Positions 1,675 through 42,824 of a stretch of DNA of 64,000 nt are shown one piece after another. This stretch comes from an uncultured Bacteriovoracaceae bacterium (GTDB lineage Bacteria; Desulfobacterota; Desulfomonilia; UBA1062): contig CAZUDI010000001.1 of assembly GCA_964618975.1 (NCBI GenBank), positions 2,234 to 66,233 on the forward strand, given 5' to 3'. A model generated the notes under the pieces. It worked only from the letters and a program-made list of their open reading frames with translations. It was not told the origin of the DNA and searched no databases. The first letter of the stretch is position 1. Each line of letters begins with the position of its first letter. The position numbers and the translations under genes are program-made.

Positions 1675-3150
1675 ATGAAAAAGGAAACTCGCGAATACGC
1701 CTATGACTGGAATCTCTGGACCATCATCGCCAATGCCTCCCGCAGCTACGACGGCTCGCCCAAGGAATATGCCGCCCTGCTCGAGTATGTCCCGCACTTC
1801 CGGGATTGCCTCGACGCCCTCATCCGGCACGGGCAACCGGGCATCCTGCTGCTCAAGCTGCTGGAAGGCTACCTGAGCGACTGCCTGCAGGCCCGCGACC
1901 GCGGGCAGAAGACCGCCTTCACCACCTTCTGTTTCGCGAGCCCCATCCTGTATGCCTTCGATGTGGTCCCCATCTGCACCGAGCCCATGTCGGTCCTGGG
2001 GACCTTCATCCACAAACGCGGCACGGCCGAATTCCTCGATTTCTGCTGCGAGGCGGGCTTCACCGAGACCTCCTGCTCCGCCCAGCGCGGCGCCCTGGGG
2101 GCCTACCTGGCGGGCCTCGGGGTGCGGCCGGACTTCGTGGTCTGCGATTCCCCCGGCATCTGCGATACCAACGCCAATTCCTTCGCCTTCGCCGCGGCCT
2201 GGCTCGATGTCCCCTTCTTCCAGCTCGATCACCCCCCGACCCTGACCGACGAACGCGCGCGCCGCTACTACCGACAGGATTTCCGCCGGCTGATCGCCTT
2301 CCTCGAGGAGCAGACCGGGAAAACCCTCGACCATGAGAGGCTTCGCGCCGTGATCGAGGAAATCCGGCGCCAGGACGAGCTGATCTGCGAGATTCAGGAA
2401 CTGCAGACGCTTCAACCCAATCCCGTGCCCGGGATCTACACCCTCTTTCTGTATGCCGGCAACTTTCTCCGGGGCGGCCGTCCCGAATATACCCGTCTGC
2501 TGGAGGCCATGCTCGCAGGCCTGCGCCCGGGTAGCGCCCCCCTCATCGCTTCTCCGCCGGAGCGGGCGCGGGGGATCTTTGCCTATATCGACCACTACAC
2601 CACGGACCTGCGTTTCTGGAACTGGCTGGAGACCCAGGGGGTCAGCCACCTGGGGTGCATCCTCAGTGCCTTCTGGCAGAAGGAAGCCTCCTACGCCTCC
2701 GACCGCCAGGAGGAAACCTATGATGCCATCGACTGCACGAGCCTCGATGGCATGCTGGACACCCTGGCCGACCAGATGTCGCGCATGCCCATGGTGAAAT
2801 CGATCCGAGGCCCCTACGACGCCCCCCATATGTGGCTCGAGGATACCCTGGGCATGGCGCGCCACTACCGGGCCGATTTCGTGGCCTACATCGGCACCAT
2901 GGGGTGCCGCAACACCTGGGGCATGGTCAAGCTTCTGGCGCGCGACCTCGAGCGGCAGGGCTACCCTACCCTGGTCCTCTACGGCGATGCCTTCGATGAC
3001 CGGGTGATGTCGTGGGAGTCCATCACGGACAAGCTGGAGGAATTCCTCAGCCTCAGGAACATCGGGCGACAGCCCCTCCCGGACGGCACAGCGTCTCCCT
3101 TACGAACCGGGGATCGACACCCCCTCTCCTCGCGGCCGGGAGGGGTTTAA
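1675..3150 (+). CDS. 2-hydroxyacyl-CoA dehydratase / BCR family subunit, HgdA/BcrC-like (alpha-type copy 1, 491 aa)
   Basis: This is an in-frame internal start (MKKETREY..) of ORF 1414..3150, with a GGGGAG SD. It shows strong HgdA-family features and is a paralog of the next gene. Confidence 0.8.
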   Translation: MKKETREYAYDWNLWTIIANASRSYDGSPKEYAALLEYVPHFRDCLDALIRHGQPGILLLKLLEGYLSDCLQARDRGQKTAFTTFCFASPILYAFDVVPICTEPMSVLGTFIHKRGTAEFLDFCCEAGFTETSCSAQRGALGAYLAGLGVRPDFVVCDSPGICDTNANSFAFAAAWLDVPFFQLDHPPTLTDERARRYYRQDFRRLIAFLEEQTGKTLDHERLRAVIEEIRRQDELICEIQELQTLQPNPVPGIYTLFLYAGNFLRGGRPEYTRLLEAMLAGLRPGSAPLIASPPERARGIFAYIDHYTTDLRFWNWLETQGVSHLGCILSAFWQKEASYASDRQEETYDAIDCTSLDGMLDTLADQMSRMPMVKSIRGPYDAPHMWLEDTLGMARHYRADFVAYIGTMGCRNTWGMVKLLARDLERQGYPTLVLYGDAFDDRVMSWESITDKLEEFLSLRNIGRQPLPDGTASPLRTGDRHPLSSRPGGV

Positions 3151-3240
3151 TCGCTATGGGACAAATTCCCCGTTGCTTGCAGCGGCAAGGAGGGGCAAAA
3201 GCTTGCCCCGGGGTTCACACCTATCTTTTCGCATGATCAG
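3147..3240. repeat. MITE/REP-like dispersed repeat, copy B (TTAATCGCTATGGGACAAATTCCCCG...GCTTGCCCCGGGGTTCACACC...CATGATCAGG)
   Basis: This is a full-length, inverted-orientation copy. Its initial TTAA provides the TAA stop of the alpha-1 dehydratase gene. Confidence 0.8.
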
Positions 3241-3258
3241 GGACGACAGGAGGTCAGG

Positions 3259-4662
3259 ATGAAGCGAGAGACACGTGAGTACCGTTTTGACTGGAATCTC
3301 TGGACGATCCTCGAGTGTGCCTCCAAGACCCAGGACGGATTCCGCAAGGAGTATGCGCACCTGCTCGACTATGTCCCGCACTATGCCGGGGTGCTGGAAG
3401 AATTCATGCGCCACGGTGAACCGGGACAGCGCTTTCTGAAGCTCCTGGCCGAATACATGGACATGTGCGTCCATGCCAAGCAGCGCGGCCAGACCACGGC
3501 TCTGACCACCTTCTGCCTCGCGCCGCCGATCCTGTACGCCTTCGATGTCGTGCCGCTGAGCCTGGAGGCATGGACGGTGCTCGGCACGATCGTGCTTGAA
3601 CGCGGCACGGCCGAGTTCTTGGACCACTGCTGCGAACTGGGCTTCACCGAGACCTCCTGCTCGGCCCAGCGCGGGGCGCTGGGCGCCTGGCTGGCCGGCT
3701 TGTGCACCGAGATGGATTTCATCGTCTTCGACTCCCCGGGCATCTGCGACACCAATGCCAATTCCTTTGCCTTCGCCTCGGCCTGGCTCGACAAACCCCT
3801 CTTTCAGCTCAACAGCCCCCCGACCCTCACAGACGATCGCGCGCTGCGCTATCACCGCGAGGACTTCAGGGCCCTGATCCATTTCCTCGAAGAGCAGACC
3901 GGGAGGGCCCTGAACGAGGGACGGCTCAGGGAGGTGCTCGAGGAGATCGCCCTCCAGGACGAGCTCGCCTGCGAACTCTTCGACCTGGCCGCCCTGAGGC
4001 CCTCCCCCGTGCCCCCGGTCTATGACCTGCTGCTCTACGGGGGCAAATTCATGATGGGGGGGCTGCCGACCTACACCCGCCTCCTGGAATCCATGGTGAG
4101 AACGGCCAGCGAGAACGCCCGCCGCGGGGCGGCCGGCACGACGACGGGCCGCGAAAGGGCGCGCGCCTTCTTCTGCTATATCGATCATTACACGACCGAT
4201 GCCCGCTTCTGGAACTGGTTTGACCGGCAGGAGATCAGCCTGCTGGGCTCCATGCTCTTCACCTTCTGGCAGAAGGACGCCGTCTACGCGAAGGGCAAGG
4301 AGGATCAGGGGTATAGCATCAGGACCGACAACCTGGAGGGCATGCTCGACTCCCTGACGGCCCAGATGTCCCGCATGCCCATGGTCAAGCAGATCCGGGG
4401 ACCCTACGACGCACCGGGCATGATGCTGGACGACGCCCTGGGGGCCGCCCGGGCGCTTAATGCCGATTTCGTCGTCTATTTCGGCACCATGGGGTGCCGC
4501 AACACCTGGGGCATGATCAAGCTCATCGCCCGCGACCTGGAACGCGAAGGCTACCCCACCCTGATCATGTACGCCGACGGCTTCGACGACCGGGTGATGT
4601 CCTGGGATTCGATAACGGACAAAATGACTGAATTTCTAAACTTAAGGAGGATAGTGGCATGA
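3259..4662 (+). CDS. 2-hydroxyacyl-CoA dehydratase / BCR family subunit, HgdA/BcrC-like (alpha-type copy 2, tandem paralog)
   Basis: The 467-aa protein starts MKRETREYRFDWNLW and has an AGGAGG SD. It is collinear with the preceding gene at roughly 55-60% identity. Confidence 0.85.
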   Translation: MKRETREYRFDWNLWTILECASKTQDGFRKEYAHLLDYVPHYAGVLEEFMRHGEPGQRFLKLLAEYMDMCVHAKQRGQTTALTTFCLAPPILYAFDVVPLSLEAWTVLGTIVLERGTAEFLDHCCELGFTETSCSAQRGALGAWLAGLCTEMDFIVFDSPGICDTNANSFAFASAWLDKPLFQLNSPPTLTDDRALRYHREDFRALIHFLEEQTGRALNEGRLREVLEEIALQDELACELFDLAALRPSPVPPVYDLLLYGGKFMMGGLPTYTRLLESMVRTASENARRGAAGTTTGRERARAFFCYIDHYTTDARFWNWFDRQEISLLGSMLFTFWQKDAVYAKGKEDQGYSIRTDNLEGMLDSLTAQMSRMPMVKQIRGPYDAPGMMLDDALGAARALNADFVVYFGTMGCRNTWGMIKLIARDLEREGYPTLIMYADGFDDRVMSWDSITDKMTEFLNLRRIVA

Positions 4663-5450
4663 TCACAGCCGGATGTGACGTCGGTTCCCTTACCGCCAAG
4701 GCGGTGGTCCTCAACCGCAGAACCATCCTCGGACAGGCCGTCATCAAGGCCTCCTCCCATCCCGAGGAGGCGGCCGACGAGGTGATGTCCCGGGCGCTGG
4801 CGCAGGCCGGGATCCCCCGCAGCGAGGTACGCTGCTGCGTGGGCACGGGCTACGGCCGCAACAAGATCCCCTTTCTGGACCACGCCGTCTCCGAGATCAC
4901 CTGCCACGGCAGGGGGGCCCAGTGGCTGCTGCCCAGCGCGCGCACGGTGATCGACATCGGCGGCCAGGACTGCAAGGCCCTCCGGCTCGACCGGGACGGC
5001 ACGGTGCTGAAATTCACCACCAACGACAAGTGCGCCGCCGGAACGGGGCGTTTCCTGGAGGTCATGGCACGCCTGCTGGGACTGAGCCTGGACGAACTGG
5101 GTACCATGGGTGGCACCCCCTCGGGTGAGCCCCTGTCACTCTCCTCCACCTGCACCGTGTGGGTGCAGGCCGAGGTCATCCGTCACCTCAACTGCCGCAG
5201 GCCCATCGACGAGATCAGCGACGCCATCAACCGGGCCATGGCCGGCCGCGTGGCCATCCTGGCCAACAGCGTGGGGGTGGACAAGGACGTCTGCATGACC
5301 GGCGGGGTGGCCAAGAACCAGGGTGTGGTCAGGCACCTGGAACGGCTCCTGGGGGTGAGGATCAAGCGCCTGCGGATCGACCCCCAGCTCACCGGCGCCC
5401 TGGGCGCGGCCCTCGTGGCCCGGCAGCACCTGGAAGGGGGTGCGGCATGA
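4659..5450 (+). CDS. CoA-substrate-specific enzyme activase (HgdC/BcrAD/BadFG ATPase family), copy 1
   Basis: The 263-aa ORF has GCDVGSLTAKAVV ... GTGYGR ... IDIGGQD ... TGGVAKN motifs typical of the acetate/sugar-kinase-fold [4Fe-4S] activases. Its ATG overlaps the upstream stop (ATGA). Confidence 0.85.
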   Translation: MITAGCDVGSLTAKAVVLNRRTILGQAVIKASSHPEEAADEVMSRALAQAGIPRSEVRCCVGTGYGRNKIPFLDHAVSEITCHGRGAQWLLPSARTVIDIGGQDCKALRLDRDGTVLKFTTNDKCAAGTGRFLEVMARLLGLSLDELGTMGGTPSGEPLSLSSTCTVWVQAEVIRHLNCRRPIDEISDAINRAMAGRVAILANSVGVDKDVCMTGGVAKNQGVVRHLERLLGVRIKRLRIDPQLTGALGAALVARQHLEGGAA

Positions 5451-6223
5451 TCGTGGCAGGAATCGACGTGGGCTCGCTCACCGCCAAGGCGGTGATCCTG
5501 GACGACAACCGCATCCTGGCCGCGCAGATCATCCGGGATCTGCCCGATCCGGTCGAGTCCGCCCGCCGCGTGATTGCGGCGGCCCTGGACCAGGCGGGCC
5601 TGGGCCTGGCTGATCTCGCCTGCTGTGTGGGCACGGGCTACGGCCGGGAACAGATCCCCTTCGCGCATTCCACCTGCTCCGAGATCGCCTGTCACGGCAA
5701 GGGGGCCCAGTGGCACGACCCCGATATCCGCATGGTGATCGACATCGGGGGCCAGGACGCCAAGGCCATCCGCCTCGATTCAGAGGGCAATATCGTGCGC
5801 TACGCCTACAACGACAAGTGCGCCTCGGGCACCGGGCGCTTTCTGGAGATCATGGCCGAGGCCCTGGGCGTGCCCCTGGACGAGATGGGGGCGCTGTCGC
5901 TGAGTGCGCGCGAGGTCCTTTCGATCTCGAATCAGTGTGTCATCTTCGCCGAGACGGAGATCGTCTCCCTGGTCAACGAGGGCGCCGCGCTCCCGGCGGT
6001 CGTCAAGGGCCTGCACCGGGCCCTGGCACATCGCGTGGCGGCCCTGGCCAAGGGCATCGAGCTGGAGACCGGCATCGCCTTTACCGGAGGCGTGGCCAAA
6101 AACCCGGGCATGTTCGCCGAATTGGAAAGCGCTTTAGGGATCGAACTTCGACACATCGATCCCGACCCGCAGATTACCGGCGCCCTGGGAGCGGCGCTCT
6201 TCGCCGCCCAGCAGGCGGCCTGA
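5447..6223 (+). CDS. CoA-substrate-specific enzyme activase (HgdC/BcrAD family), copy 2
   Basis: The in-frame start MIVAGIDVGSLTAKAVIL lies within ORF 5159..6223. It carries the same motif set as copy 1 and is ATGA-coupled to it. Confidence 0.85.
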   Translation: MIVAGIDVGSLTAKAVILDDNRILAAQIIRDLPDPVESARRVIAAALDQAGLGLADLACCVGTGYGREQIPFAHSTCSEIACHGKGAQWHDPDIRMVIDIGGQDAKAIRLDSEGNIVRYAYNDKCASGTGRFLEIMAEALGVPLDEMGALSLSAREVLSISNQCVIFAETEIVSLVNEGAALPAVVKGLHRALAHRVAALAKGIELETGIAFTGGVAKNPGMFAELESALGIELRHIDPDPQITGALGAALFAAQQAA

Positions 6224-6224
6224 G

Positions 6225-6980
6225 ATGGATCTCTTCGAGCCCTATATCGATGCCGTGCGCGCCTTTGCCGCACGCCGCCCGGAAAGGAGGAGCACCACGC
6301 TCCCCGAGCAGGTAGTCTGGCCCCGGGGAGGCCGCCGCAACATCGTGCTCGGCTCCGACATGGCCTTCGAACTGGGCAGCCCGCAGATGGAGTCGTTCTC
6401 CGTGCTGCTCTGGAGCGAGCAGGCGGATCGGGTGCGCGACCGCTCGCTGACCCTGATCGGGCCGGACATTTCCCGGGGTGTGCCCGGGCAGCTGCCCTTT
6501 GCCCGGGTGCTCCTGGTGGGGGTCCAGGGCTTCGACGAACAGAACACCTATGCCCGCTACCGGGAGATGGAGCAGTCCCGCTACGATCTCGATCTGAGAG
6601 GCTACATGCTGCGGGCCGTTTCCCAGTACCAGCGCGAGTGGTGCCGCCTCAGCCATGAAGCCCTCGCGGGCGGGTTCACCTTTGCCACCCTGGCCGCGCG
6701 CCACATGGACCTCCTGCACCGCCTGCCCTATGTAATCGCAACCGAGATGCTCATCGTGACCTCTGCAAGCGAAGACGTGCGCGAACTGCGTATGGTCCTC
6801 AAGGACACCGCGCGCATCATCGCCGCCATGAACACGATGTTTTCCGAGCTGGATCTCGACTGCGAGAGTTGTGAATATCAGGATGTGTGCACGGAGGCCA
6901 GTGAGCTCAGACGCATGCATACACGCATCGTGGAGTCCGCCGCGCGGGAGCGCCAGCGCGACGAGGGACCCGGCTGTTAA
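6225..6980 (+). CDS. hypothetical protein co-transcribed with the dehydratase/activase cluster (C-terminal CxxCxxxxxC motif)
   Basis: The 251-aa ORF starts 2 nt after the activase stop. I recognise no family; the C-terminal CESCEYQDVC cysteines are the only notable motif. Confidence 0.55.
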   Translation: MDLFEPYIDAVRAFAARRPERRSTTLPEQVVWPRGGRRNIVLGSDMAFELGSPQMESFSVLLWSEQADRVRDRSLTLIGPDISRGVPGQLPFARVLLVGVQGFDEQNTYARYREMEQSRYDLDLRGYMLRAVSQYQREWCRLSHEALAGGFTFATLAARHMDLLHRLPYVIATEMLIVTSASEDVRELRMVLKDTARIIAAMNTMFSELDLDCESCEYQDVCTEASELRRMHTRIVESAARERQRDEGPGC

Positions 6981-7024
6981 GGAAAGTCTTTTCTTGGCGC
7001 TGTCTTTGTTATACAGACAGGGTC

Positions 7025-7291: not shown

Positions 7292-7310
7292 CCGCCACGC
7301 GTCCCCGGTG

Positions 7311-7955: not shown

Positions 7956-7964
7956 GCCGCCCCC

Positions 7965-9501: not shown

Positions 9502-10023
9502 TCATAGCGACCCGTCGAGGTCGTCGGACACATCCCGCTTGCAGACCCGGCAGCGCTGTGCGCCCCGGAAAAGCGGGCTGCCGCAGTCCGGGCAGTGGTA
9601 GCGTTCGCACTCCGCCCGGGCCCACTCCACGCTGCCCTCCTCATCGCCGTAGCGGGCGACCATCTCGCGCCAGAGCGGGATGGTGCGCTGCATCACCCGC
9701 AGCCCTGTGGCCAGTCCGAAATTCTCGACCATGGAGCAGGGCCATTCCTCGCACTGGTGGCAGGAGTAGAAGCCTTTTGTTCTGACACAGTCCCGGATGG
9801 CACACTGGGAACAGTAACCGTAGAGCATCTCGGGCGGATCGGGTTGCATGCACCCCCGGCAGCGCGTCTCATCCGGGCGGGTCCCGTAGAGGTTACCCAT
9901 GACCGCTTTGAACTTGTCGTTGTCATCGCGCGTGGCGATATACACCCCGCATACCCCGCAATACAGTCCGCAGGGTGCCATCAGGTCCCTGTCTCTGAGC
10001 TCTTCCTCCGACCATCCCTTCAT
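9502..10023 (-). CDS. DUF3795 domain-containing cysteine-rich protein
   Basis: The internal start MKGWSEE has a GGAGG SD. The protein has a CGLYCGVCGVY motif plus several further C-x2-C motifs. Confidence 0.65.
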   Translation of the reverse strand: MKGWSEEELRDRDLMAPCGLYCGVCGVYIATRDDNDKFKAVMGNLYGTRPDETRCRGCMQPDPPEMLYGYCSQCAIRDCVRTKGFYSCHQCEEWPCSMVENFGLATGLRVMQRTIPLWREMVARYGDEEGSVEWARAECERYHCPDCGSPLFRGAQRCRVCKRDVSDDLDGSL

Positions 10024-10298
10024 GCTCGGCCTCCTGTAATCGCTGAGGGTCGTATTCCCCGCCGCTGCCGTCTTCAACCTCAATCCAGGGCCGGCCCCTA
10101 ATTTCATACCCCGGGCTTGCCCCAGCTCGCCTGTCAAAATTTAGCGTTCAGGGCATGGGCACGGGTTGTCCCGATAATCTGTCATGCCGGGAAAAATGTC
10201 AAGCCGGGCACTTCCCCAAGTCAGACGCCCGCAAAGATAAGACACAAGTCCCGATCGGCACCGTGCAGCGGATCCAGGCCTCAAGGCCGCAATGTCTC

Positions 10299-12256: not shown

Positions 12257-12345
12257 TTTAATGGCCTGCGGGTCGAACTCCCCGTCGCCTGCAGCGGTAT
12301 AGAGGGTCCTTGGGCTTGCCCTGGTGTTCTTGCCCATGAGGTTCT
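12257..12345. repeat. MITE/REP-like repeat, copy K (degenerate)
   Basis: GGGTCGAACTCCCCGTCGCCTGCAGCGG...GGGCTTGCCCTGGTGTTCTTGCCCATGAGG aligns to copies I and B. Confidence 0.55.
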
Positions 12346-15372: not shown

Positions 15373-15527
15373 CAATCGCTTGCGGGGCAAATTCCCTTAG
15401 CACTTGCTGCGGCGGGGAGGGCCCGGCCTCTGTGTGGGTTCTTACCCATGATTCACCGGGGGTCGCCCCTGCTCCTTGCGATCTTAGGGGGTGCCAGGGC
15501 TTGCACCGGGGTTCATCCTCATGATTG
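15373..15527. repeat. MITE/REP-like repeat, copy C (composite, two tandem units)
   Basis: It reads AATCGCTTGCGGGGCAAATTCCC...CCCATGATTCA followed by GCCAGGGCTTGCACCGGGGTTCATCCTCATGATTGAAGG. Confidence 0.75.
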
Positions 15528-15552
15528 AAGGCCCTCTCGTTGAGCTTCCCCT

Positions 15553-17831: not shown

Positions 17832-18194
17832 GAATCTCTCCTTTCTCGCGTATTTTCATTTAGCATGGGAACGATCCCCCGCACCCGGCCCCGAAAACTC
17901 TTGAGACCTCAAGCGGCGGGGAAGGCATCCCTCTAAGCCTTTAGAGCAACCGGCATGCCATCATGGGCCATCAAGCCCCAGACTTGTCCATCAAATCGTT
18001 TTTCAAGAGGTTATTGTCTGAGATCCCTCACTGCCGCCCCTGGCCGTTACGGGCGCATGTACAGAATATATGCAGAGGTGCTGCCCAGGCTGTATGAATA
18101 ATAGCCAGGCGAGGTGCACCCGATGCCGGTTACAACCACGGATCCAAACATCCTCGGCGGGGGGGTGTCTGCCGCACAGGCTTAACGTCCTGCG

Positions 18195-18380
18195 GAATCA
18201 TCGACCCACAGGTCACGCTGCATGGGAATGAATCCCGGGGACAGCCCGCCCCCCTCCTGAAGGGCTTGATCGCTTGGAAACGTGGCATCAAACAAATCAT
18301 GGTATGAATCCCAAGGCAAGCCTAAGGCCCCGGCTTTTAGCTGCAAGTAGCGGGAAATTCTCCCCTCAGGTCATTAATGA
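18195..18380. repeat. MITE/REP-like repeat, copy D (composite, two units)
   Basis: It reads CATGGGAATGAATCCCGGGG... and AATCATGGTATGAATCCCAAGGCAAGCCTAAGGCCCCGGC...GCAAGTAGCGGGAAATTCTCCCC..CATTAATGATT. The second unit is about 85% identical to copy H. Confidence 0.8.
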
Positions 18381-21924: not shown

Positions 21925-22353
21925 GGTGATCTCCTTTCCGGTATCGGGGGCCTTCCGGCTTGTGCACCTCGATGCCCCAACGAGATTGTGTATAATCGTG
22001 TATATTATTCCCCTTGACGCACGCAACCGCAAAAGACCTGATCGCAGAAGGGTGCCGGCCGGACACCTTCTGTGCAAGCAGTCGTTTTCTGTGATTGCCT
22101 CGATTGCCAATGAGATGGCCATTCCCTCGGCAATTGAGGACTCAAGGAGGGTCCCGCGCCCTTCAGGTACATCCCCCTGATCCGGCAGGTAAATGTCTCC
22201 AGGTTGTTTCTGGCTTTGTGAACTTGGATGGAGCAACTGCACGTCTTGCCGACTCACAAGAAGCCTCTTTGTGGCGCCCGATACACATCCGATTGATATG
22301 TGCACTGCGATACATATCAAGCTTGCAATTCAGGCTGTGGATGTATTAGATGT

Positions 22354-22450
22354 TTAATCGTTATGGCTCGAATTCCCTCACAATGTGTACTGAATGCGCC
22401 GCCAAGGAAACACCGGGGTCTGTCCTTTAGCCTCATTCCCATACTAATGC
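22354..22450. repeat. MITE/REP-like repeat, copy J
   Basis: TTAATCGTTATGGCTCGAATTCCCTCAC... is similar to copy I unit 1 and to copies B and G. Confidence 0.6.
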
Positions 22451-30389: not shown

Positions 30390-30458
30390 TTAATCATGGG
30401 GATGAGAACCCCAGGGCAAGCCCTGTACCCTCCTTGACACCACCCGGGACGGGGCGTC
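30390..30458. repeat. MITE/REP-like repeat, copy E
   Basis: TTAATCATGGGGATGAGAACCCCAGGGCAAGCCCTG...CCTCCTTGACACCACCCGGGACGGGG is seen; the first 32 nt are the reverse complement of the end of copy I. Confidence 0.75.
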
Positions 30459-30487
30459 TATCCAGAGAGATTCAGCACAATCCGGAC

Positions 30488-32247: not shown

Positions 32248-32507
32248 GAAAAACTCCTTAATGTCTGTGATCTACGCCTCAGTCTTGGCCATGAGAGGCC
32301 CCGTATGTCTGTGATCTGCTTCTTAGTCAGGGTGCCTAACACAGATTGGCACATAATTCAACTTACCTCCCCCGCAATCCACGAGACCACCGCAGAAAAT
32401 TTGCTCACAATTCCCGATCCGAGGAGACCCTGCCCCCCTGATTGACCTTGACAAACGCCAGCACACCCGTTAGTGAGTGAGTAATTACTCGCTAATGGGG
32501 CGCATGC

Positions 32508-33143
32508 ATGGCTAAGGCAACCTTTCACCGTATTTCGAAGGAAAAGCAGCGCAGAATCCTCGATGTCGCCGCCAGGGAATTCGCCACCCACGGCTTCCAC
32601 AAATCCAACATCAATACCATCGCCGAGAACGCGGGCATCTCCATTGGTGCCATGTACAAGTATTTCAGGAGCAAGGAAGAGCTCTTCAATGAGACTGTGG
32701 ACGACGGTATCCGCATGCTCGACGACTACTACACCGAGATCGTAAACCGCAGGGGCGACCCCCTGGAGAAGATCCGCAGTATCTTTACCGAGGTCATCTG
32801 TTCCATGGAGGATATGCACTTCTTTCCCCACCTCTATCTGGCGCTCATCTCTACCGGCATGGACGCCTTTGCCGATGAATACGCGGAGAAGATCGAGCAG
32901 GTGGGGAGACAGTACCTCACGCGCCTGATCCGGGAGGGCATCGAGGACGGCTACATCCGCAGGGACATCGACATCGAGATGGCCGTCTATTTCATCGACA
33001 ACCATCTCATGATGCTCCTTTTCGCGCGCGTTTCCCCCTTTCTGAAGATCCGCCAGCAGACCTTCCTGGGGGGAGAGACCGCCCCCGCACGCATCGTGGA
33101 AGAGACCGTGAACATCTGCCGCAGGATGTTCGTGCCCGATTGA
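32508..33143 (+). CDS. TetR/AcrR-family transcriptional regulator
   Basis: The 211-aa protein has an N-terminal HTH (RILDVAAREFATHGFHKSNINTIAENAGISIGAMYKYF). Confidence 0.8.
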   Translation: MAKATFHRISKEKQRRILDVAAREFATHGFHKSNINTIAENAGISIGAMYKYFRSKEELFNETVDDGIRMLDDYYTEIVNRRGDPLEKIRSIFTEVICSMEDMHFFPHLYLALISTGMDAFADEYAEKIEQVGRQYLTRLIREGIEDGYIRRDIDIEMAVYFIDNHLMMLLFARVSPFLKIRQQTFLGGETAPARIVEETVNICRRMFVPD

Positions 33144-33189
33144 GGCTGTACCCCCGCAAGGGGAGACCATAGTGGAGGAGGTTTGATCT

Positions 33190-34038
33190 ATGCCGCTTAC
33201 GCCTGAAGAAAACAGGGAGTTGATTGGCAAGGCGTGTGAGATCCGCAAGGAAATCGTCACGATCGCCTTTACCGCGGGTGGCGGGCACGTGGGGGGCTCG
33301 CTCTCCCAGACGGATGTCCTGGTGGCGCTGTACTACCGCTTTATGAACATCGATCCCACGCGCCCTGACTGGGAGGACCGCGACCGTTTCATCCTCTCCA
33401 AGGGCCACGGGGGGCTCGGATGGGCCGCCGTCCTGGGAGACAAGGGCTATTTCGACAAGAAGCTCCTGAAAAATTTCAACAAGACCGGCTCGCCCTTCGG
33501 CATGCACCTCGACAGCCTCAAGGTGCCCGGCTGCGACGCCTCCACCGGATCGCTGGGGCACGGCTTGGCGATCGCGGTGGGCATGGCCAAGGGCGCCCGG
33601 CTGCTAGGCAAGTCGTACCGCACCTATGTCATGATGGGCGACGGTGAGCTGTGTGAGGGCTCGGTGTGGGAGGCCGCTATCCTGGCCGGTCACCACAAGC
33701 TGGACAACCTCATCGCCTTTATCGACCGCAACCAGCTCATGATCGACGGCCCCACCGAGGAGATCACCACCCTCGAGCCACTGGTCGACAAATTCGTGGC
33801 CTTTGGCTGGGACACCCAGAGGATCGACGGCCACGACTTCGAACAGATCGTGGCCGCTATCGAAAAGGCCCACTCTGTCAAGGACAAGCCCTCGATAATC
33901 ATCTGCGACACGATCAAGGGTAAGGGGGTCTGCCAGTTCGAGGGCAACGCCCAGTGGCACTACGGGGGCATCGATTCCGACATCCGGGATCAGGCCTTCT
34001 CAGACATCGACAAGCTCCGCAAAGAGCTCTGCGGATAA
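33190..34038 (+). CDS. transketolase, N-terminal (TPP-binding) subunit of split transketolase
   Basis: The 282-aa protein has GGHVGGSLS and GDGELCEGSVWEA TPP motifs. Confidence 0.85.
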   Translation: MPLTPEENRELIGKACEIRKEIVTIAFTAGGGHVGGSLSQTDVLVALYYRFMNIDPTRPDWEDRDRFILSKGHGGLGWAAVLGDKGYFDKKLLKNFNKTGSPFGMHLDSLKVPGCDASTGSLGHGLAIAVGMAKGARLLGKSYRTYVMMGDGELCEGSVWEAAILAGHHKLDNLIAFIDRNQLMIDGPTEEITTLEPLVDKFVAFGWDTQRIDGHDFEQIVAAIEKAHSVKDKPSIIICDTIKGKGVCQFEGNAQWHYGGIDSDIRDQAFSDIDKLRKELCG

Positions 34039-34050
34039 AGGAGGCGCAAG

Positions 34051-35058
34051 ATGGCTGAAGGTATGACATGGTCGGTTACCGACGGTGACAAGCTGACCCA
34101 GGCGGAAATCTATGGCGAGGTCCTCTCGCAGATGGGCGAGAAATACCCCAACCTCGTCGCCATGACGGCCGACCTGGCCAAATCCACCAAGATCGGCCGG
34201 TTTGAAAAGAGGTATCCCGAGCGCTTCATCAATGTCGGCATCGCCGAGAACTCCCTCTTCGGCATGGCGGCAGGACTCGCCCAGTCGGGGCTCCTGCCGG
34301 TGGTCTCCACCTTTGCCGTGTTCGCTTCTCTTCGGTGCGCCGAACAGGTGCGCACCGACATCTGCTACCAGAACCTGAACGTGAAGATCATCGCCACCCA
34401 CGCCGGCATCTCGTTCGGCCAGGCCGGCTCCACCCATCACTGCACCGAGGACATCGCCGTGATGCGCTCTTTCGCCAACATGACCGTCATCGTGCCCGCC
34501 GACGGCATCGAGACCGGCAACGCCGTGAGCCAGGCCCTGGAATGGCCCGGCCCGGTCTATATCCGTATCGGCCGTGGTTTCGAGCCCCACGTGCACACCA
34601 CGCAGGACTATGGCTTCACCATCGGCAAGGCCGTGACCCTCAAAGACGGCCACGACGTCACCCTCATCGCCTGTGGCGTGGGTGTGCTCCAGGCCATGCG
34701 CGCCGCCGCGGTGCTTGGGGCCCAGGGCCTCTCCGTACGCGTCATCGATATGCACACCATCAAGCCCATCGACGCCGACATCATCATCAAGGCCGTGCGC
34801 GAGACGCGCCGTATCGTGACCATCGAGGAACACAACATCTTCGGGGGCCTGGGCTCGGCCGTGGCCGACGTGATTACCGCCAGCGGCAAGGCCTGCGCCT
34901 TCCGCAAACTCGGTGTGCCGGACGCATTCTCGATCGTGGGCTATCCCGAGGACCTCTACCACCACTACGGCTTCGATGCCGACGGCATCGTCGAGGCCGT
35001 GGGCGCGCTCATGAAGATGGAGATCGAAGAGGACGAAGACTGGGAAGACGAGGTGTAG
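34051..35058 (+). CDS. transketolase, C-terminal (pyrimidine-binding + C-terminal domain) subunit
   Basis: The 335-aa protein shows a typical split-TK C subunit pattern (FINVGIAENSLFGMAAGLA...). Confidence 0.85.
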   Translation: MAEGMTWSVTDGDKLTQAEIYGEVLSQMGEKYPNLVAMTADLAKSTKIGRFEKRYPERFINVGIAENSLFGMAAGLAQSGLLPVVSTFAVFASLRCAEQVRTDICYQNLNVKIIATHAGISFGQAGSTHHCTEDIAVMRSFANMTVIVPADGIETGNAVSQALEWPGPVYIRIGRGFEPHVHTTQDYGFTIGKAVTLKDGHDVTLIACGVGVLQAMRAAAVLGAQGLSVRVIDMHTIKPIDADIIIKAVRETRRIVTIEEHNIFGGLGSAVADVITASGKACAFRKLGVPDAFSIVGYPEDLYHHYGFDADGIVEAVGALMKMEIEEDEDWEDEV

Positions 35059-35061
35059 GCC

Positions 35062-35844
35062 ATGGCTGACACGGTTAAGCTTACCAACCGGATAATCCTG
35101 CGGTCGATCTTTCCGCTCTTCAAGGTCATCTACGAGGCCGACTGCAGTAAGGCCAAGGACATCTTGGGGCGCTTCGACGGTGTGATCCAGTTTGCCGTCC
35201 ACCATAGTGACACCGGCGCCTACCTCGAGTTCAAAGACGGGGGGCTCGAGGTGCTCCAGGGCATCCACCCGCGGCCGGATATCTATATCGGCTTTCGCGA
35301 CATGGCCGCCATGAACGCCATGTTCACCGGCGGCAAGCCCTCCGAGATCGGCCTGCCCCGCCTCAGGGGCCTCTGGCGCCTGGGGCTGCTCGTGCGCCTG
35401 GGCCTGCTCTTCCCGGGCCTGCTGATGCTCATGCCCGACAACCACCCCAGTGACCCCTCCAAGCGTGCCCTCAAGGTGCGTATGACCATGTACATGGTCA
35501 CCAACGCGCTCAGCCAGCTCAACAAGGGCGGCGACGAGGACATGCAGACCTGGACGGCCAAACAGCCCGACCGCATCTACCAGCTCTCGGTGGACCCCGA
35601 CGGCGACGCGGCCTACCTGCGCGTCAAGGCCGGCAAGACCAAGGCCGGCCGGGGGCGCTACGCCCGCAAGGCCCCCTTCATTCACATGCGCTTCAATTCG
35701 CTGGATTCAGCCTATGCCGTGCTCTGTGAAGGCAAGGACACCCTCACGGCCATCTCCGATGGCGACCTCAATCTCGAGGGTTCCCCGGAGTACGGCGGCG
35801 CCTTCGGCGGCTTCATGCTCAAGATCCAGGACCTCGTTACCTGA
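35062..35844 (+). CDS. hypothetical protein co-transcribed with split transketolase (260 aa)
   Basis: It starts 4 nt after the TK-C stop and is followed by a rho-independent terminator. I recognise no family. Confidence 0.5.
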   Translation: MADTVKLTNRIILRSIFPLFKVIYEADCSKAKDILGRFDGVIQFAVHHSDTGAYLEFKDGGLEVLQGIHPRPDIYIGFRDMAAMNAMFTGGKPSEIGLPRLRGLWRLGLLVRLGLLFPGLLMLMPDNHPSDPSKRALKVRMTMYMVTNALSQLNKGGDEDMQTWTAKQPDRIYQLSVDPDGDAAYLRVKAGKTKAGRGRYARKAPFIHMRFNSLDSAYAVLCEGKDTLTAISDGDLNLEGSPEYGGAFGGFMLKIQDLVT

Positions 35845-35849
35845 ATCCC

Positions 35850-35888
35850 AGCCGGGCCCCCTGTTCCCTGAAGGGGGCCCGGCTTTTA
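35850..35888 (+). terminator. rho-independent terminator (AGCCGGGCCCCCT..AGGGGGCCCGGCT + TTTT)
   Basis: A GC-rich hairpin followed by a T-run lies immediately after the stop at 35844. Confidence 0.7.
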
Positions 35889-35906
35889 AGAGAAAAGAAC
35901 AAACCT

Positions 35907-35957: not shown

Positions 35958-36100
35958 TTCAGCTCCCGGGCTGGGCACATGAAACAATCCCTTGAGCTTG
36001 ACTATCCTCGACTTAAGCGTCGGGGAGTTATGGTGATTGAATTCGACACCGGTGCGCAGGGTCGTGCGGTGCCTGCCCGGGATGGCGGCCGAGAAGCCGG

Positions 36101-37564: not shown

Positions 37565-37569
37565 GGAGG

Positions 37570-38157: not shown

Positions 38158-38289
38158 GCATGTTCCTCCTAGGCTGTTCTGGCCGTTTCCCTCATCATTG
38201 TCCTGTCTGTGCCCGGCCACCGCATACAGACTGTGACCACACACCTGCGCTTCCCCCATATCAACAAGCGCTCAATCACCCGGCCTTCT

Positions 38290-38372
38290 ATCGTGGCTAT
38301 GAAAACCCTCCGGCAAGCCCGGGCCACTCCTTGACGCCAGAAGCGGCGGGGAACCCGACCCATACCGATTAA
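38290..38372. repeat. MITE/REP-like repeat, copy F
   Basis: It reads ATCGTGGCTATGAAAACCCTCCGGCAAGCCCGGG..CCTTGACGCCAGAAGCGGCGGGGAACCCGACCCATACCGATTAA. Its terminal TTAA overlaps the frr stop codon. Confidence 0.7.
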
Positions 38373-38926
38373 ACTTCCAGAATCTCTTTTTCCTTTACGG
38401 ACAGGAGTTCATCCACCTTCTTGATACTCTCGTCCGTGACGGTCTGCACTTTGTCGAGCCCCTTCTGCATCTCATCCTTGTTGATCTCCTTGTCCTTCTC
38501 GAGATCCTTGAGCAGGGCATTGGCGTCCCGGCGATGGTTGCGCATCTCGATCTTATAGTCCTCCGCCATCTTCTTGACCATACGGACCAGTTCCTTGCGG
38601 CGTTCCTCGTTCAACGGGGGGATAGGCACCCGGATGATGTTCCCGTCATTATTGGGGGTCAGACCGAGCTCCGATTTCATAATGGCCTTTTCGATCGGCC
38701 CCAGGGCACCCTTATCCCAGGGCTGAATGGAAATCAGCCGAGCTTCGGGTACGGACAGGGTGGCCAGCTGGTTCAGCGGTGTCGGGCTGCCGTAGTAATC
38801 CACCAGGATCCCGTCCATAATGCCGATGGAGGCCCTGCCCGTGCGCACCTTGGCCAGGGCCTGCTTCATGGCCTCGAGGCTCTTGACCATGTCCTGCTTC
38901 ATTTCATTGAGTACATCATCAACCAT
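38369..38926 (-). CDS. frr: ribosome recycling factor
   Basis: The start MVDDVLNEMKQDM has a GGGAGGA SD, and the protein shows RRF-family conservation. Confidence 0.9.
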   Translation of the reverse strand: MVDDVLNEMKQDMVKSLEAMKQALAKVRTGRASIGIMDGILVDYYGSPTPLNQLATLSVPEARLISIQPWDKGALGPIEKAIMKSELGLTPNNDGNIIRVPIPPLNEERRKELVRMVKKMAEDYKIEMRNHRRDANALLKDLEKDKEINKDEMQKGLDKVQTVTDESIKKVDELLSVKEKEILEV

Positions 38927-38930
38927 AGGT

Positions 38931-39650
38931 TCATCCTCCCCCTGCCCATACACGGGATCCGATATCCTCGCCCATCAGGAGCCCCCGCAGCTTCTCCGGC
39001 ACATTGATGTTCATGACGCGGATTTCCAGGCCGTTATCACGGCACAACGCGATGGCTGAGGCATCCATCACCTTCAGGTTTCTGCTGAGCACCTCGTCAT
39101 AATCGAGTTCGGCAAAGAAGACGGCCTCCGGATACCGCACAGGGTCCCTGTCGTAGACACCGTCGACCTTGGTGGCCTTGATCAGGACGTCGGCCCCGAT
39201 CTCCAGCGCGCGCAGCGCGGCCGTAGTGTCGGTGGTGAAATACGGGCACCCCGTGCCCCCGGCAAAGAGTACCACCCGGTTGTGATCGAGGTGTTTGAGT
39301 GCCCGGGCCCGAACAAAGGTCTCGACCACCCGGGGAACCTCCAAGGCACTCATGATGCGGCTCTCCAGGCCCTGGCGGCCCATCTCTTCCGACAGCGCCA
39401 AGGCGTTCATGAGCGTCGCCAACATGCCCATGTGATCCGAACGCACACGGTCCGTGAAGATCCCGGTCTGGGCGCCGCGGTGAATGTTGCCACCGCCGAT
39501 GACGATGCCCACCTGCGCCCCGGTCTCCACGGCTACCCGCACACATGCGGTGATGCGGGCCAGGGCCTCGGGCTCGATCCCGAAGCCCTGCGCGCCGGCC
39601 AGGGCCTCACCGCTGAGTTTCAAGAGAATGCGGGAATACCGGATCGTCAC
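38931..39650 (-). CDS. pyrH: UMP kinase
   Basis: It has a YSRILLKLSGEAL motif and a GGGNIHRG motif. A GTG start is proposed (VTIRYSRILLK aligns to the E. coli PyrH N-terminus); the 5' end is uncertain (the ORF is open to 39710). Confidence 0.8.
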   Translation of the reverse strand: MTIRYSRILLKLSGEALAGAQGFGIEPEALARITACVRVAVETGAQVGIVIGGGNIHRGAQTGIFTDRVRSDHMGMLATLMNALALSEEMGRQGLESRIMSALEVPRVVETFVRARALKHLDHNRVVLFAGGTGCPYFTTDTTAALRALEIGADVLIKATKVDGVYDRDPVRYPEAVFFAELDYDEVLSRNLKVMDASAIALCRDNGLEIRVMNINVPEKLRGLLMGEDIGSRVWAGGG

Positions 39651-39654
39651 GGTT

Positions 39655-40254
39655 CTACAGCTCTTCTCCCAACTGATACCTGGCAAAACGCCGGATGAGA
39701 CATTTTTCACCGGTCTTGCCCATCAGCTGTTCCAGTAGCTGCCCCACGCTCACGTCCGAGTCCTTGACAAAGGGCTGCTCGAGCAGACAGCGCTCGGAAT
39801 AGAACTTCTTGAGTTTGCCCTCGACGATCTTGTCCAGGATCTTTTCGGGTTTGCCGGATTTGAGGGCCTGCTCCTTGAGGATCTCCTTTTCCTTGTCCAG
39901 CACCTCACCGGGCACCTCGTCGCAGCTGACCCATTCCGGGCCGGCGGCGGCGATATGCATAGCGACATCCTTGGCGAAACTGGTGAAATCATCCGACTTG
40001 GCCACGAAGTCACTCTCGCAGTTCACCTCGAGGAGCACGCCGATCTTGCCGCCCATATGGATGTAGGAGATCACGGTTCCCTGTAAGGTCGCCCGCCCCG
40101 AGCGCTTGCTGGCCACCTCCATGCCCTTCTTGCGAAGCAACTCGACGGCCTTATCGAAGTTACCCCCGGCCTCGGTGAGGGCCTTCTTGCAATCCATCAT
40201 GCCCACGCCGGTCTTATCTCTCAGTTTCTTGACGTCTTCTGCTGTTATCTGCAC
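39655..40254 (-). CDS. tsf: elongation factor Ts (short form)
   Basis: The 199-aa protein has the N-terminal UBA-like motif ITAEDVKKLRDKTGVGMMDCKKAL. Confidence 0.9.
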   Translation of the reverse strand: MQITAEDVKKLRDKTGVGMMDCKKALTEAGGNFDKAVELLRKKGMEVASKRSGRATLQGTVISYIHMGGKIGVLLEVNCESDFVAKSDDFTSFAKDVAMHIAAAGPEWVSCDEVPGEVLDKEKEILKEQALKSGKPEKILDKIVEGKLKKFYSERCLLEQPFVKDSDVSVGQLLEQLMGKTGEKCLIRRFARYQLGEEL

Positions 40255-40274
40255 GCTCTCCCTCCCCTCATGCT

Positions 40275-41150
40275 CTAGGCTGTTTCTTCATCCTCGAATT
40301 CATCGACCGTGCCGCTAGGGAGTTCATCATCACCGCCCTTGACGATGATCTCGATTTCACCCTCGAGTCCCTGACCGATCTGCTCCCTGGGACGACCCTC
40401 GGCCGCCGAAGGTGCACCTTCGACCTCTGAAGAGGCCTCCTTTATCTCGCTTTGCAGCTTTTCCTCGTAGAGGGAACGCCCCTCTATGACCGCCTCGGCG
40501 ATCTTCGAGGTGAAAAGCCGGATGGCCCGGATGGCGTCGTCATTGCCGGGAATGACATAATCGATAAGGGTAGGATCACAATTCGAATCCACGATGGCCA
40601 CAATGGGGATGCCCAGTTTGCGCGCCTCCTTGACAGCGATGTTCTCCCGTGTAGGATCGACCACATAGACGATATCCGGCAGGTGATCCATATCCTTGAT
40701 CCCGTTCAGGGCGCGATCGAGCTTCATCTTGTGGCGCTTCATGCTGAGCTGTTCCTTCTTGGGATAGTCCTCGATCGTGCCGTTATCGATGATATTCTCG
40801 AGCCACTTGAGCTTTTCGACGCTCAGCTTGATGGTCTCATAGTTGGTGAGCATGCCGCCCAGCCAGCGGTGATTGATATAGAAGGCCCCGGAGCGCTGCG
40901 CCTCTTCCTCGATGGCGTCCTGGGCCTGCTTCTTGGTCCCCACGAATAGAATGCGCCCCCCGCTGGCCGTGGTTTCCCTTATGAAATCACACGCCTGATC
41001 AAAGAGTTTCTCGGTCTTCTGCAGATCGATGATGTGGATACCGTTTCTGGCCCCGAAGATATAGGGTTTCATCTTGGGATTCCAACGCGGGGTTTGATGG
41101 CCGAAATGGACGCCTGCCTCCAGAAGCTGCTTCATGCTAACTACCGACAT
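40275..41150 (-). CDS. rpsB: 30S ribosomal protein S2
   Basis: The protein starts [27 protein letters not shown] and has an acidic C-terminal extension. Confidence 0.9.
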
Positions 41151-41338
41151 ACTTCCTCCTTCTCTGGGTTTTTATCCTCCGCCCCCTGCAGGCATCATCC
41201 TCCCATAGGACACCCGAAGCCTGCGTAAAAAAAGGGACGTGTGTATTGGTCAGCCCTTCTATCACACCCGGAACCGGCTTTCAAGGGGTAAGGCATGAAA
41301 TTTATCAGGGGAACAGTGCCATGTATGCCCGGGGACGC

Positions 41339-41902
41339 TCATGCCCCTTTGAACAGCGGTGCGACCTTCTTGAAGAGAGGCGTCCCCGCCCGCTCCAGGA
41401 GCATGAAGGCAATGGTCTCGGTGGTATACACGAGGGCTCCCGCATCCCGCAGGGTCTCGATGGCCGCTGTGCGGTCCTCGGCGTAACGCGAACAGACCGC
41501 ATCTGCGGCCACCACCACCTTGAAACCGGCCCGCAGGAGGTCGAGGGCGCTCTGCAGCACACACACATGCGTTTCGATCCCGGTAATTATCACGGACCTG
41601 CGGCCCGTCTCCACCAGTACCTGCTTCAGGTCCGGGTCTCTGAAGCAGCTGAAGGTCATCTTGGCATAGCGGGGGATGCCCTCGGTCAGGCGCCCGACCT
41701 CCAGCATGGTCTCTCCGAGGCCTTGCGGGTACTGCTCAGAGATCACAAGCGGCAGAGAGCACGCCTTGGCGCACTCGATCAGGATCAGACTGTTGTCGAG
41801 GAACGCCTGCCTGAATGGCACCTCCATGGCCTGATAGAGCCGCGGCTGAATATCGATCACCAGCAGGAGCGTCTCATTACTATAAATCATAAAATCCTTC
41901 AT
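41339..41902 (-). CDS. isochorismatase-family cysteine hydrolase
   Basis: The start MKDFMIYSN has a GAGGAAG SD, and the protein has a VVAADAVCS catalytic-Cys region. Confidence 0.7.
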   Translation of the reverse strand: MKDFMIYSNETLLLVIDIQPRLYQAMEVPFRQAFLDNSLILIECAKACSLPLVISEQYPQGLGETMLEVGRLTEGIPRYAKMTFSCFRDPDLKQVLVETGRRSVIITGIETHVCVLQSALDLLRAGFKVVVAADAVCSRYAEDRTAAIETLRDAGALVYTTETIAFMLLERAGTPLFKKVAPLFKGA

Positions 41903-41927
41903 CGTCTTCCTCATTCATTAATCGCTA

Positions 41928-41990
41928 TGGGGCGAATTCCCCCACCGTTTGCGTCGTCAAGGGCTTGCGCCGAGGTTCATGCCCCTGATG
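41928..41990. repeat. MITE/REP-like repeat, copy G (short)
   Basis: TTAATCGCTATGGGGCGAATTCCCCC...GGGCTTGCGCCGAGGTTCATGCCCCTGATG aligns to copy B. Confidence 0.7.
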
Positions 41991-42039
41991 TCAGATCCAT
42001 CGCTATCGCTCTGGCCGTCCCTTTGATGTGCGGTGCCGC

Positions 42040-42717
42040 TCAGAGGATCAGAGGATAGATCATGGCATACACGATGGCGGGGATCATATTGCCGACCTTG
42101 ATCTGCTTGAGCCCCAGCAGGTTAACACCGATCCCCACGATGATGATACCGCCGGTGGCCTCCACCGAACTCAGGACTAAGGGGTCCTGGAGGAAGGCCA
42201 GGGCGGATGCCAGCAGGGTGAACCCGCCCTGAACCACCAGCACGGACAGCGCCGAGAAGGCCACACCGATGCCCAGGGAGGAGGCCAGCGCCGTGGCAGC
42301 CACCCCGTCGAGCAGGGATTTCACGAAAAGCGTGCTGGAATCACCCACGGTTCCGTCCTGGATACAGCCCACGATCATCATGGCCCCCGTAAGGTAGAGC
42401 ACGGAGGCCGCTACAAACCCCTGCACAAAGGTCGACGACTCGGAGCGGAAGCGCCGTTTTAGTCGCTCGCCCAGAAGCTCGACCCCACGTTCGATGCGTA
42501 AAAGCTCACCGGTCACTGAGCCCAGCAGCAAACAGCTGATGGTGGCCACGGGGGTGTTCCCGACGAGCGCCATCTTGATCCCGATGAGTATCACGGCCAA
42601 TCCCAGGGCCTCCATGAGGATGGACTTGATCCCCGGAGAGATATGTCGTCCGGCGAACAGGCCCACCGCACTCCCCACCAGAATCGCCCCGGTATTCACG
42701 ATTGTTCCGGTCACGCC
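42040..42717 (-). CDS. DUF554-family membrane protein (YqgA-like)
   Basis: A GTG start (VTGTIVNTGAILVG) with an AAGGAG SD is proposed, but the ORF is open upstream to 42744, where an ATG lies inside a repeat element. Confidence 0.6.
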   Translation of the reverse strand, partial: GVTGTIVNTGAILVGSAVGLFAGRHISPGIKSILMEALGLAVILIGIKMALVGNTPVATISCLLLGSVTGELLRIERGVELLGERLKRRFRSESSTFVQGFVAASVLYLTGAMMIVGCIQDGTVGDSSTLFVKSLLDGVAATALASSLGIGVAFSALSVLVVQGGFTLLASALAFLQDPLVLSSVEATGGIIIVGIGVNLLGLKQIKVGNMIPAIVYAMIYPLIL

Positions 42718-42733
42718 CGGCTCCTTTGTCCCA

Positions 42734-42824
42734 CGTTCAATCATGGGTATGGACCCCAGGGCAAGCCTAAGGCCCCTGCTTGCCGCCGCAAGCGGCGGGG
42801 AATTTGACCCTCAGGCCATTAAAG
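42734..42824. repeat. MITE/REP-like repeat, copy H (full-length, near-consensus)
   Basis: It reads AATCATGGGTATGGACCCCAGGGCAAGCCTAAGGCCCCTGCTTGCCGCCGCAAGCGGCGGGGAATTTGACCCTCAGGCCATTAAAG, with a central GCTTGC-CGCC-GCAAGC hairpin. Confidence 0.85.

Follow-up and report, generated by a model that had tools for sequence, protein, structure and literature searches.

Introduction

IS200/IS605 insertion sequences (IS) move as single strands through a Y1 HUH transposase. They are inserted on the 3' side of a short motif (4-5 nt) without duplicating it, and the transposase reads both the motif adjacent to the left end (LE) and the motif that terminates the right end (RE) (PMC7290912, PMC10055086). 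Palindrome-associated transposable elements (PATEs) are fused IS200/IS605-type ends with near-terminal palindromes that make no target duplication and are too short for a transposase (PMC3119063, PMC7290912). They are known in Haloquadratum walsbyi, Halanaerobium hydrogeniformans, and Geobacillus stearothermophilus (PMC3119063, PMC7290912, PMC10055086). Here we describe a family of short intergenic repeats in 64,000 nt of DNA (the window; GenBank contig CAZUDI010000001.1, positions 2,234 to 66,233) from an uncultured bacterium of the Desulfomonilia lineage UBA1062, where repeat ends coincide with the stop or start codons of neighboring genes. We conclude that the repeat is probably a non-autonomous, terminal-only derivative of the IS200 group (IS200/IS605 family), in other words a PATE in which an LE is fused to an RE with no gene between them.

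The window element resembles known PATEs in being too short for a protein, in its apparent make-up of fused ends with hairpin-like palindromes, its conserved boundary oligonucleotide, the absence of evidence for duplication, and its many diverged copies. Homology of its left end, a TTTAA motif, and its short size together fit the PATE definition (PMC3119063, PMC7290912). Unlike known PATEs, which derive from tnpB-bearing IS1341/IS605 elements, it would derive from the tnpA-only IS200 group. It also differs in measuring ~80 nt, in occurring about once per 4 kb in an uncultured Desulfomonilia-like bacterium, and in having an RE without detectable similarity to those of the autonomous elements sampled. 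With autonomous IS200 elements (pPSE7367.01, pDSJ05) it shares a homologous LE (TTTAA, then TC..GGGTC.AATTCCCCGCCGCTTGCGGCG) and, in architecture, an RE whose CTTG-loop hairpin leads into GGGGTT… and an ATTGA terminus, but it lacks tnpA and its RE stem is CCAGGG/CCCTGG rather than CCCCGCTGC/GCGGCGGGG. Some IS200/IS605 TnpB elements likewise have the pentanucleotide TTTAA, their transposon-adjacent motif (TAM), 5' of the left end. Unlike those elements, which carry tnpB and guide RNAs, the window has no TnpB and no guide-RNA scaffold.

Repeat family

A profile built from 8 copies detected 16 copies or fragments in the window (nhmmer, E < 0.01), about one per 4 kb and all outside coding interiors, which makes the family larger than the first-pass annotation of this DNA had listed. 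Copies were 72-88 nt long, too short for a transposase gene, and were found on both strands (10 on plus, 6 on minus) and in both orientations relative to flanking genes. The copies are old; pairwise identity among them had a median of ~60% and a maximum of 0.83. The copies are as follows.

1322..1401, minus strand: copy A (diverged); its right-end terminus, TGATTCATGGG as read on the plus strand, forms the TGA stop (1322-1324) of the BcrC-like gene
1402-1406, plus strand: flank of copy A, target-like TTCAA (reverse complement TTGAA)
3151..3235, plus strand: copy B; LE directly after TTTAA (3146-3150), the last three bases of which are the alpha-1 TAA; right-end boundary uncertain within 3232-3239
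10040..10122, plus strand: copy C; TGTAA (10035-10039) before the LE; adjoined by the Shine-Dalgarno (SD) sequence and ATG (10024) of the minus-strand DUF3795 gene
12262..12343, plus strand: copy D; TTTAA (12257-12261) before the LE; between a Fer4 gene and a DMT_6 gene
15376..15455, plus strand: copy L; CTCAA before the LE; terminus ATTCA
15457..15528, plus strand: copy M; left end truncated; head-to-tail, 1-2 nt after copy L; terminus ATTGA
17880..17952, minus strand: copy E (degenerate), a profile match
18293..18373, minus strand: copy E2; ATTAA before the LE (TTAAT on plus, 18374-18378)
22358..22445, plus strand: copy O (degenerate, with an internal insertion); TTTAA (22353-22357) before the LE
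30390..30470, minus strand: copy F; right end intact (…CCCCATGATTAA), LE half degenerate; between convergent genes
38287..38368, minus strand: frr-junction copy (called copy F in the first-pass annotation); LE abuts the TTTAA (TTAAA on plus, 38369-38373) that holds the frr stop
41922..41993, plus strand: copy J; ATTAA (41917-41921) before the LE; between the DUF554 and isochorismatase genes
42737..42818, minus strand: copy H; right end …CCCATGATTGA (minus strand) holds an in-frame ATG at 42744; TTTAA before the LE (TTAAA on plus, 42819-42823)
50993..51063, plus strand: copy K (internal deletion); TTCAA before the LE
52785..52862, plus strand: copy N (degenerate); ~20 nt from copy I
52884..52964, plus strand: copy I; TTTAG (52879-52883) before the LE; terminus ATTAA; 27 nt from a radA-like stop

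In the tandem pair L and M (15376-15528) only 1-2 nt separate the ATTCA that closes the first copy from the start of the second, as though the second copy had used that right-end terminus as its target. Most copies also contain, in the IS orientation and between the hairpin blocks, a central SD-like (C)AAGGAGGG (e.g. 3186-3194; CCAGGAGGG at 52921-52929). This may be a remnant of the ribosome-binding site of a parent tnpA, and it could seed spurious gene starts.

Element ends

In a blastn search of plasmids with one copy, only the LE half was matched, across many phyla. The matched LE lay immediately upstream of an IS200/IS605 tnpA in the Pseudanabaena pPSE7367.01, Pantoea stewartii pDSJ05, and Chroococcidiopsis pB plasmids, and the same arrangement was present in an Edwardsiella plasmid and a Ca. 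Megaera plasmid. The hosts of these plasmids are thus cyanobacterial, enterobacterial, and Rickettsiales. Two transposases belonged to Pfam Y1_Tnp (E = 7e-39 and 7e-36). Against a hidden Markov model (HMM) made from five external LEs alone, 9 window copies scored E < 0.05, and for 7 of them E was below 1e-3. The window LE consensus is TTTAA followed directly by TCGCTGAGGGTCGAATTCCCCGCCGCTTGCGGCG; external LEs, read on the tnpA strand, have TTTAA followed by TC(A/T)C…GGGTCTAATTCCCCGCCGCTTGCGGCG.

The other half of the window element has a hairpin-like block with a CTTG loop and then GGGGTTCATACCCATGATT(A/G/C)A, while external REs read CCCCGCTGCTTGCGGCGGGG…TTATTGA. Its assignment as an RE is provisional and draws on architecture only, namely the CTTG-loop hairpin, GGGGTT…, and the terminal ATTGA or ATTAA. 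By eye, hairpins can be drawn as CGCCG-CTTG-CGGCG and CCAGGG-CTTG-CCCTGG, with a few compensatory changes (copy B and the Trichlorobacter element described below).

A scan of the genome collection for a two-block pattern returned three matches. Two look truly related (an Acidobacteriales metagenome-assembled genome, MAG, and an uncultured MAG); the third, in Lysobacterales, was set aside as chance. JGI metagenomes contained no match to the pattern; neither collection includes the source organism.

Two elements outside the window have a comparable organization. The Trichlorobacter lovleyi plasmid pIAE1 (L012, NZ_CP058410.1) carries at ~1440-1540 an unannotated LE+RE-only element of ~95 nt after GTTTAA, directly following the T-run of a terminator-like hairpin (…GGGGTTTTTTTTGTTTAA, then TCTCTGAGGGT…). 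Its flanks, searched in plasmids for an empty site, matched only themselves, and a filled/empty pair for related IS200 sought in E. coli genomes gave unrelated matches or none. A related ~95-nt element at 2176-2271 of the Acidobacteriales MAG contig JAATFE010000358.1 (L008) has an LE that abuts ATTAA; the TAA of that ATTAA (2266-2268, minus strand) is the stop of an open reading frame (ORF) at 2266-2904, a geometry like that of frr in a different phylum.

Insertion target

The motif before the LE was TTTAA in five copies and ATTAA in two (7/14 window copies), and the remainder had 1-2 nt variants (TTTAG, TGTAA, TTCAA, CTCAA, TTGAA, CTGAA). TTTAA also preceded the LE in 5/6 external elements. 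Right-end termini were ATTAA, ATTGA, ATTCA, or decayed forms of these. The first-pass annotation had proposed insertion targeted to TTAA or TGA. Its TTAA component is borne out by the motif before the LE, but separate targeting of TGA is unnecessary because the TGA at copy A is made of the last bases of the element's right end.

The same annotation had raised the possibility of a target-site duplication, which finds no support here. A matching tetramer or pentamer was present at both ends in 0/9 copies with both ends readable, and the best-supported relatives of the repeat, IS200/IS605 elements, insert without duplication; the genomes of related bacteria are too distant for base-exact empty sites. 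We infer that what looks like TTAA at both ends combines a host target, next to the LE, with the terminus of the element itself at the RE.

TTTAA is strongly partitioned in this sequence. The window has a G+C content of 61.6%, and coding interiors make up 86% of it. Counting both strands, there are 23 TTTAA sites, of which 5 are in coding interiors, 14 are intergenic, and 4 overlap stop codons, for a density of 0.09 per kb in coding interiors vs 2.05 per kb elsewhere (~23-fold). An LE occupied 5/23 of these sites, two of the five at stops. The A/T-rich intergenic region upstream of the HU gene (51380-51800) has several unoccupied TTTAA/TTAAA sites, so accessible targets are not all filled.

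Under random placement in the intergenic DNA that existed before insertion (~7.5 kb), ~0.06 exact co-oriented abutments of an LE on a stop would be expected; two were observed (P ~0.002). A third stop abutment involves the opposite (right) end of the element. Occupied and free TTTAA sites did not differ in their overlap with stops (Fisher p = 0.53). Target choice is enough to explain the stop adjacency without extra selection, because TTTAA contains TAA and is dense outside coding interiors, and the selection for ORF-abutting elements that had been offered as an alternative is not needed.

Stop codons

The genes whose borders coincide with repeat ends are listed below.

194..1324, plus strand: BcrC/BzdN-like HGD-D subunit (bcrC), 376 aa, one residue shorter than its orthologues
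1675..3150, plus strand: alpha-1 HGD-D paralogue, 491 aa, with a 24-codon read-through tail whose stop is the TAA within the TTTAA that precedes copy B
38369..38926, minus strand: frr, ribosome recycling factor (RRF), 185 aa, native C-terminus …KEKEILEV
42040..42714, minus strand: DUF554 gene with corrected start, 224 aa, GTG at 42714-42712

The first-pass annotation had read the repeat termini as supplying codons to flanking genes at four junctions, and as letters on the page these coincidences were all reproduced. TTAA is at 3147-3150 and the TAA at 3148-3150 terminates the ORF at 1675-3150 (alpha-1); GATTAA is at 38367-38372, where TTA at 38369-38371 is the minus-strand TAA stop of frr; the TGA at 1322-1324 is both the stop of the BcrC-like gene and the first bases of copy A; and the CAT at 42742-42744 gives the minus-strand ORF 42040-42744 its first in-frame ATG, inside the ATCATGGG terminus of the copy at 42737-42818. 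Syntenic relatives without the element were found for the frr, DUF554/isochorismatase, and bcrC junctions. The expectation that element-free orthologues would end at the same native stop held for the frr C-terminus but not for BcrC, whose orthologues are one residue longer.

frr. RRF of the window is 185 aa long with the C-terminus …KEKEI(L/M)E(V/I), as are the 28 next-best homologues that were read. The gene ends in …TGA with no element in three syntenic relatives (RRF identity 77%), and the spacer to the next gene is 89-130 nt in relatives vs 212 nt in the window. The frr stop (GTT TAA) is probably host target DNA, with the LE beginning at the next base.

Alpha-1. Relatives have a single alpha gene of 467 aa with a stop that overlaps the next start (ATGA). 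Window alpha-1 lacks that stop, and the first in-frame stop, 24 codons on, is the TAA of the TTTAA that precedes copy B. Alpha-1 (491 aa) and alpha-2 (467 aa) form a tandem duplicate at 1675-4662 with 71-77% DNA identity, where relatives L020 and L021 have one gene (467 aa). The duplication extends ~30 nt into the start of the BcrAD gene that follows, and copy B is at the paralogue junction. A variant of the population, recovered from a different sample in this metagenome series (L023, 5438-6922), has an alpha-1 of 494 aa vs 491, with small indels relative to the window.

bcrC. Orthologues (64-66% identity) end …ERIA*, and the window protein falls one residue short of them. In relative L021 the gene ends GCT TAA AGG, in which TTAAA is the reverse complement of the target over the stop, and window positions 1400-1408, on the far side of copy A, read GCTTCAAGG. 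The spacer to the next gene is 13-17 nt in relatives vs 105 nt in the window. The ancestral bcrC TAA appears to survive, decayed, ~80 nt downstream, and by the predicted reading frame it is the right end of copy A that supplies the working stop (TGA).

The family can shift real stops, leaving bcrC one residue shorter and alpha-1 24 codons longer.

Start codons

That the N-terminus of DUF554 is mis-called at ATG 42744 had already been suspected, and the orthologues agree. DUF554 proteins of relatives are 225-226 aa long and start V(I/V)GT…, aligning with VTGTIVNT… of the window from the GTG at 42714, and the metagenome gene caller also used this GTG to give 224 aa. The proposed GTG preceded by AAGGAG is therefore the right kind of start at a slightly wrong position, being 42714-42712 and not 42717 (42717-42715 is GGC). 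The ATG at 42744 is the ATG within the RE consensus CCCATGATT, in frame by chance, an annotation trap rather than a start. CCCATGATT was found in every intact right-end terminus, so about one third of gene-facing copies would have it in frame, and an in-frame ATG at 42744 is not above chance.

Similar caution applies to other genes. The isochorismatase gene next to DUF554 starts at ATG 41902 (MKDF… vs MNAF… and MSAF… in relatives), not at the upstream in-frame ATG 41914 beside the target motif of copy J; the spacer between the two genes is 0-14 nt in relatives vs 137 nt in the window. The longest ORF for DUF3795 (9502-10137, minus strand, 211 aa, TTG start) runs in frame through copy C, and its Pfam domain begins at residue 53. 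A start at ATG 10024, with AGGAGG upstream, is more likely. The family places ATG (in CCCATGATT), SD-like AAGGAGG, and TAA/TGA at gene borders, which leads to over-long ORF calls such as those of DUF554 and DUF3795.

Related genomes

RRF (77% identity) and BcrC (64-66% identity) led to the relatives, which keep the gene order of the window. The nearest are labelled Desulfomonilia, Deltaproteobacteria, or Syntrophaceae MAGs. Across 104 kb of syntenic DNA from six relatives there was no copy of the repeat, no LE-like sequence, and no tnpA, and because of this absence the family appears to have expanded in the lineage of the window. Elsewhere in the window, at 32500-35850, the ParA-like and HEAT-repeat genes, which are adjacent in relatives L014, L016, and L018, are separated by genes for a TetR regulator, a transketolase split into N and C parts, and an SCP2-domain protein, which looks like a ~3.8-kb insertion in the window lineage.

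Weighing the explanations

Several observations weigh against a terminal-only IS200 derivative. Neither the window nor ~16 kb of additional DNA from this organism contained a tnpA, so the mobilizing enzyme is assumed, not seen. An HMM of external REs did not detect the window RE half, and the hairpins were not thermodynamically significant, with folding energies no better than those of shuffled sequences. All contigs of this organism in ENA and Logan (MUDA16-1 metagenomes) were >99% identical to the window and had the same copies, so the precise boundaries and the lack of duplication are features that we infer. Reconstructing the original junction of copy A needs an assumed 2-nt change. Finally, copy orientation (10 plus, 6 minus) showed no replication-strand bias despite a uniformly negative GC skew on the plus strand, a weak point given the small, old sample. 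We still consider an IS200-group PATE the probable identity of the repeat, and weigh other explanations below.

The alternative that survives best, although we think it clearly unlikely, is a host-resident family like repetitive extragenic palindromes (REP) or REP doublets forming hairpins (REPIN), kept by a single-copy domesticated IS200-like transposase of the REP-associated tyrosine transposase (RAYT) kind instead of living as parasites of an active IS200, and perhaps acting as terminators, mRNA stabilizers, or protein-binding sites. Such families and the window repeat are alike as dense intergenic repeats on which a Y1 HUH relative of IS200 TnpA presumably acts, and 16 copies in 64 kb is a REP-like density. 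Old copies (median identity ~60%), confinement to the window lineage with absence from 104 kb of relatives, and the lack of a full-length IS200 nearby would also be expected of such a family. Yet the LE has its homology to true IS200 ends and not to REP sequences, and the window element has no conserved GTAG head, is neither a simple palindrome nor an inverted REP doublet, and forms no regular inverted pairs or doublets. Nor does it have a conserved fold or an orientation rule relative to transcription.

A structured-RNA interpretation was dropped for want of an Rfam match and of a significant or conserved fold. Rfam gave no match at gathering score across the window (best match at a relaxed threshold, E = 7), ARAGORN found no tRNA or tmRNA, no copy folded better than its shuffles (z -1.6 to +0.8), and RNAalifold found no common structure among copies.

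Very improbable, in our estimation, is a classical miniature inverted-repeat transposable element (MITE) moved by a DDE transposase (IS630/Tc1-mariner-like, IS5-like, or piggyBac-like), with terminal inverted repeats and a TTAA or TA duplication, the TTAA duplication having been raised in the first-pass annotation. The consensus does start TTAATC… and finish …GATTAA, and there is weak, gapped inverted similarity between the ends (TTAATC, GGGT, GAA, CCCC). However, the nine copies readable at both ends never had the same tetramer or pentamer there, and the two sides are not equivalent, with a 5-nt TTTAA on the left and ATT(A/G/C)A on the right. One half has its homologue in the LE of IS200 elements that carry tnpA, and these do not duplicate their target (PMC7290912). 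The only external matches were IS200 left ends, and the search turned up no parent IS of the DDE type.

A functional intergenic cassette selected at ORF ends, either a small ORF for translational coupling like that of mycobacterial interspersed repetitive units (MIRUs) or a supplier of stops and starts, can be practically dismissed, for although one frame is open in copies A, C, D, and H, the differences between D and H in …GEFDPQAIK look synonymous, and the element has SD-like AAGGAGG at its center, copies take both orientations relative to flanking genes, several (E2, F, G, I) contain in-frame stops or frameshifts, occupied TTTAA sites lie at stops no oftener than unoccupied ones, and ATG 42744 is not the orthologous DUF554 start. 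Several copies carry stops in every frame, which together with the two orientations makes a translated or MIRU-like cassette unlikely. The coding interpretation, prompted by the third-codon-position differences between D and H, was ruled out by the stops and frameshifts in many copies. MIRUs of mycobacteria are tandem, share one orientation with transcription, and contain small ORFs. The window repeat is similar to them as an intergenic repeat with ends that overlap flanking stop and start codons, and unlike them in its two orientations and broken reading frames.

Proposed mechanism and significance

For an IS200-group PATE we propose that a TnpA from another locus of the genome would cut out a single strand of the element and insert it 3' of a TTTAA TAM without duplication. 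The RE would end in the element's own ATT(A/G/C)A, and the TTAA core that this has in common with the TAM would let the two ends mimic a duplication. Because TTTAA is nearly absent from coding interiors at 62% G+C, usable targets would be intergenic A/T spots and TAA stops. Where TTTAA ends a co-oriented gene, as at frr, the LE would start at the base after the stop, and the stop would be host DNA. Where the TAA is on the other strand (T TAA A), the element would land just before it, and the reverse complement of the RE terminus (TTAAT, TGAAT, or TGATT) would become a replacement stop, as proposed for bcrC and copy A. Alpha-1, its own stop lost, would now be read as far as the TAA contained in the TAM that precedes copy B.

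A more speculative extension, which we offer tentatively and think doubtful, is that the family may use TAA stops as safe landing sites in a G+C-rich genome, persisting at REP-like density under a single domesticated IS200-type transposase. Insertion at a stop on either strand would then keep or restore an in-frame stop and be nearly scarless because the TTTAA target and the ATTAA terminus share the palindromic core TTAA.

The repeat would be a known kind of mobile element behaving as expected, of modest interest and opening no long-standing question. It is useful chiefly as a warning for annotation and as a clear case of insertion at stop codons driven by a target motif. As an IS200-group PATE, it would document such an element at unusually high density in an uncultured Desulfomonilia-like lineage, and would show how, where G+C content is high, the IS200/IS605 target rule steers insertions toward stop codons and the very short spacers of operons.

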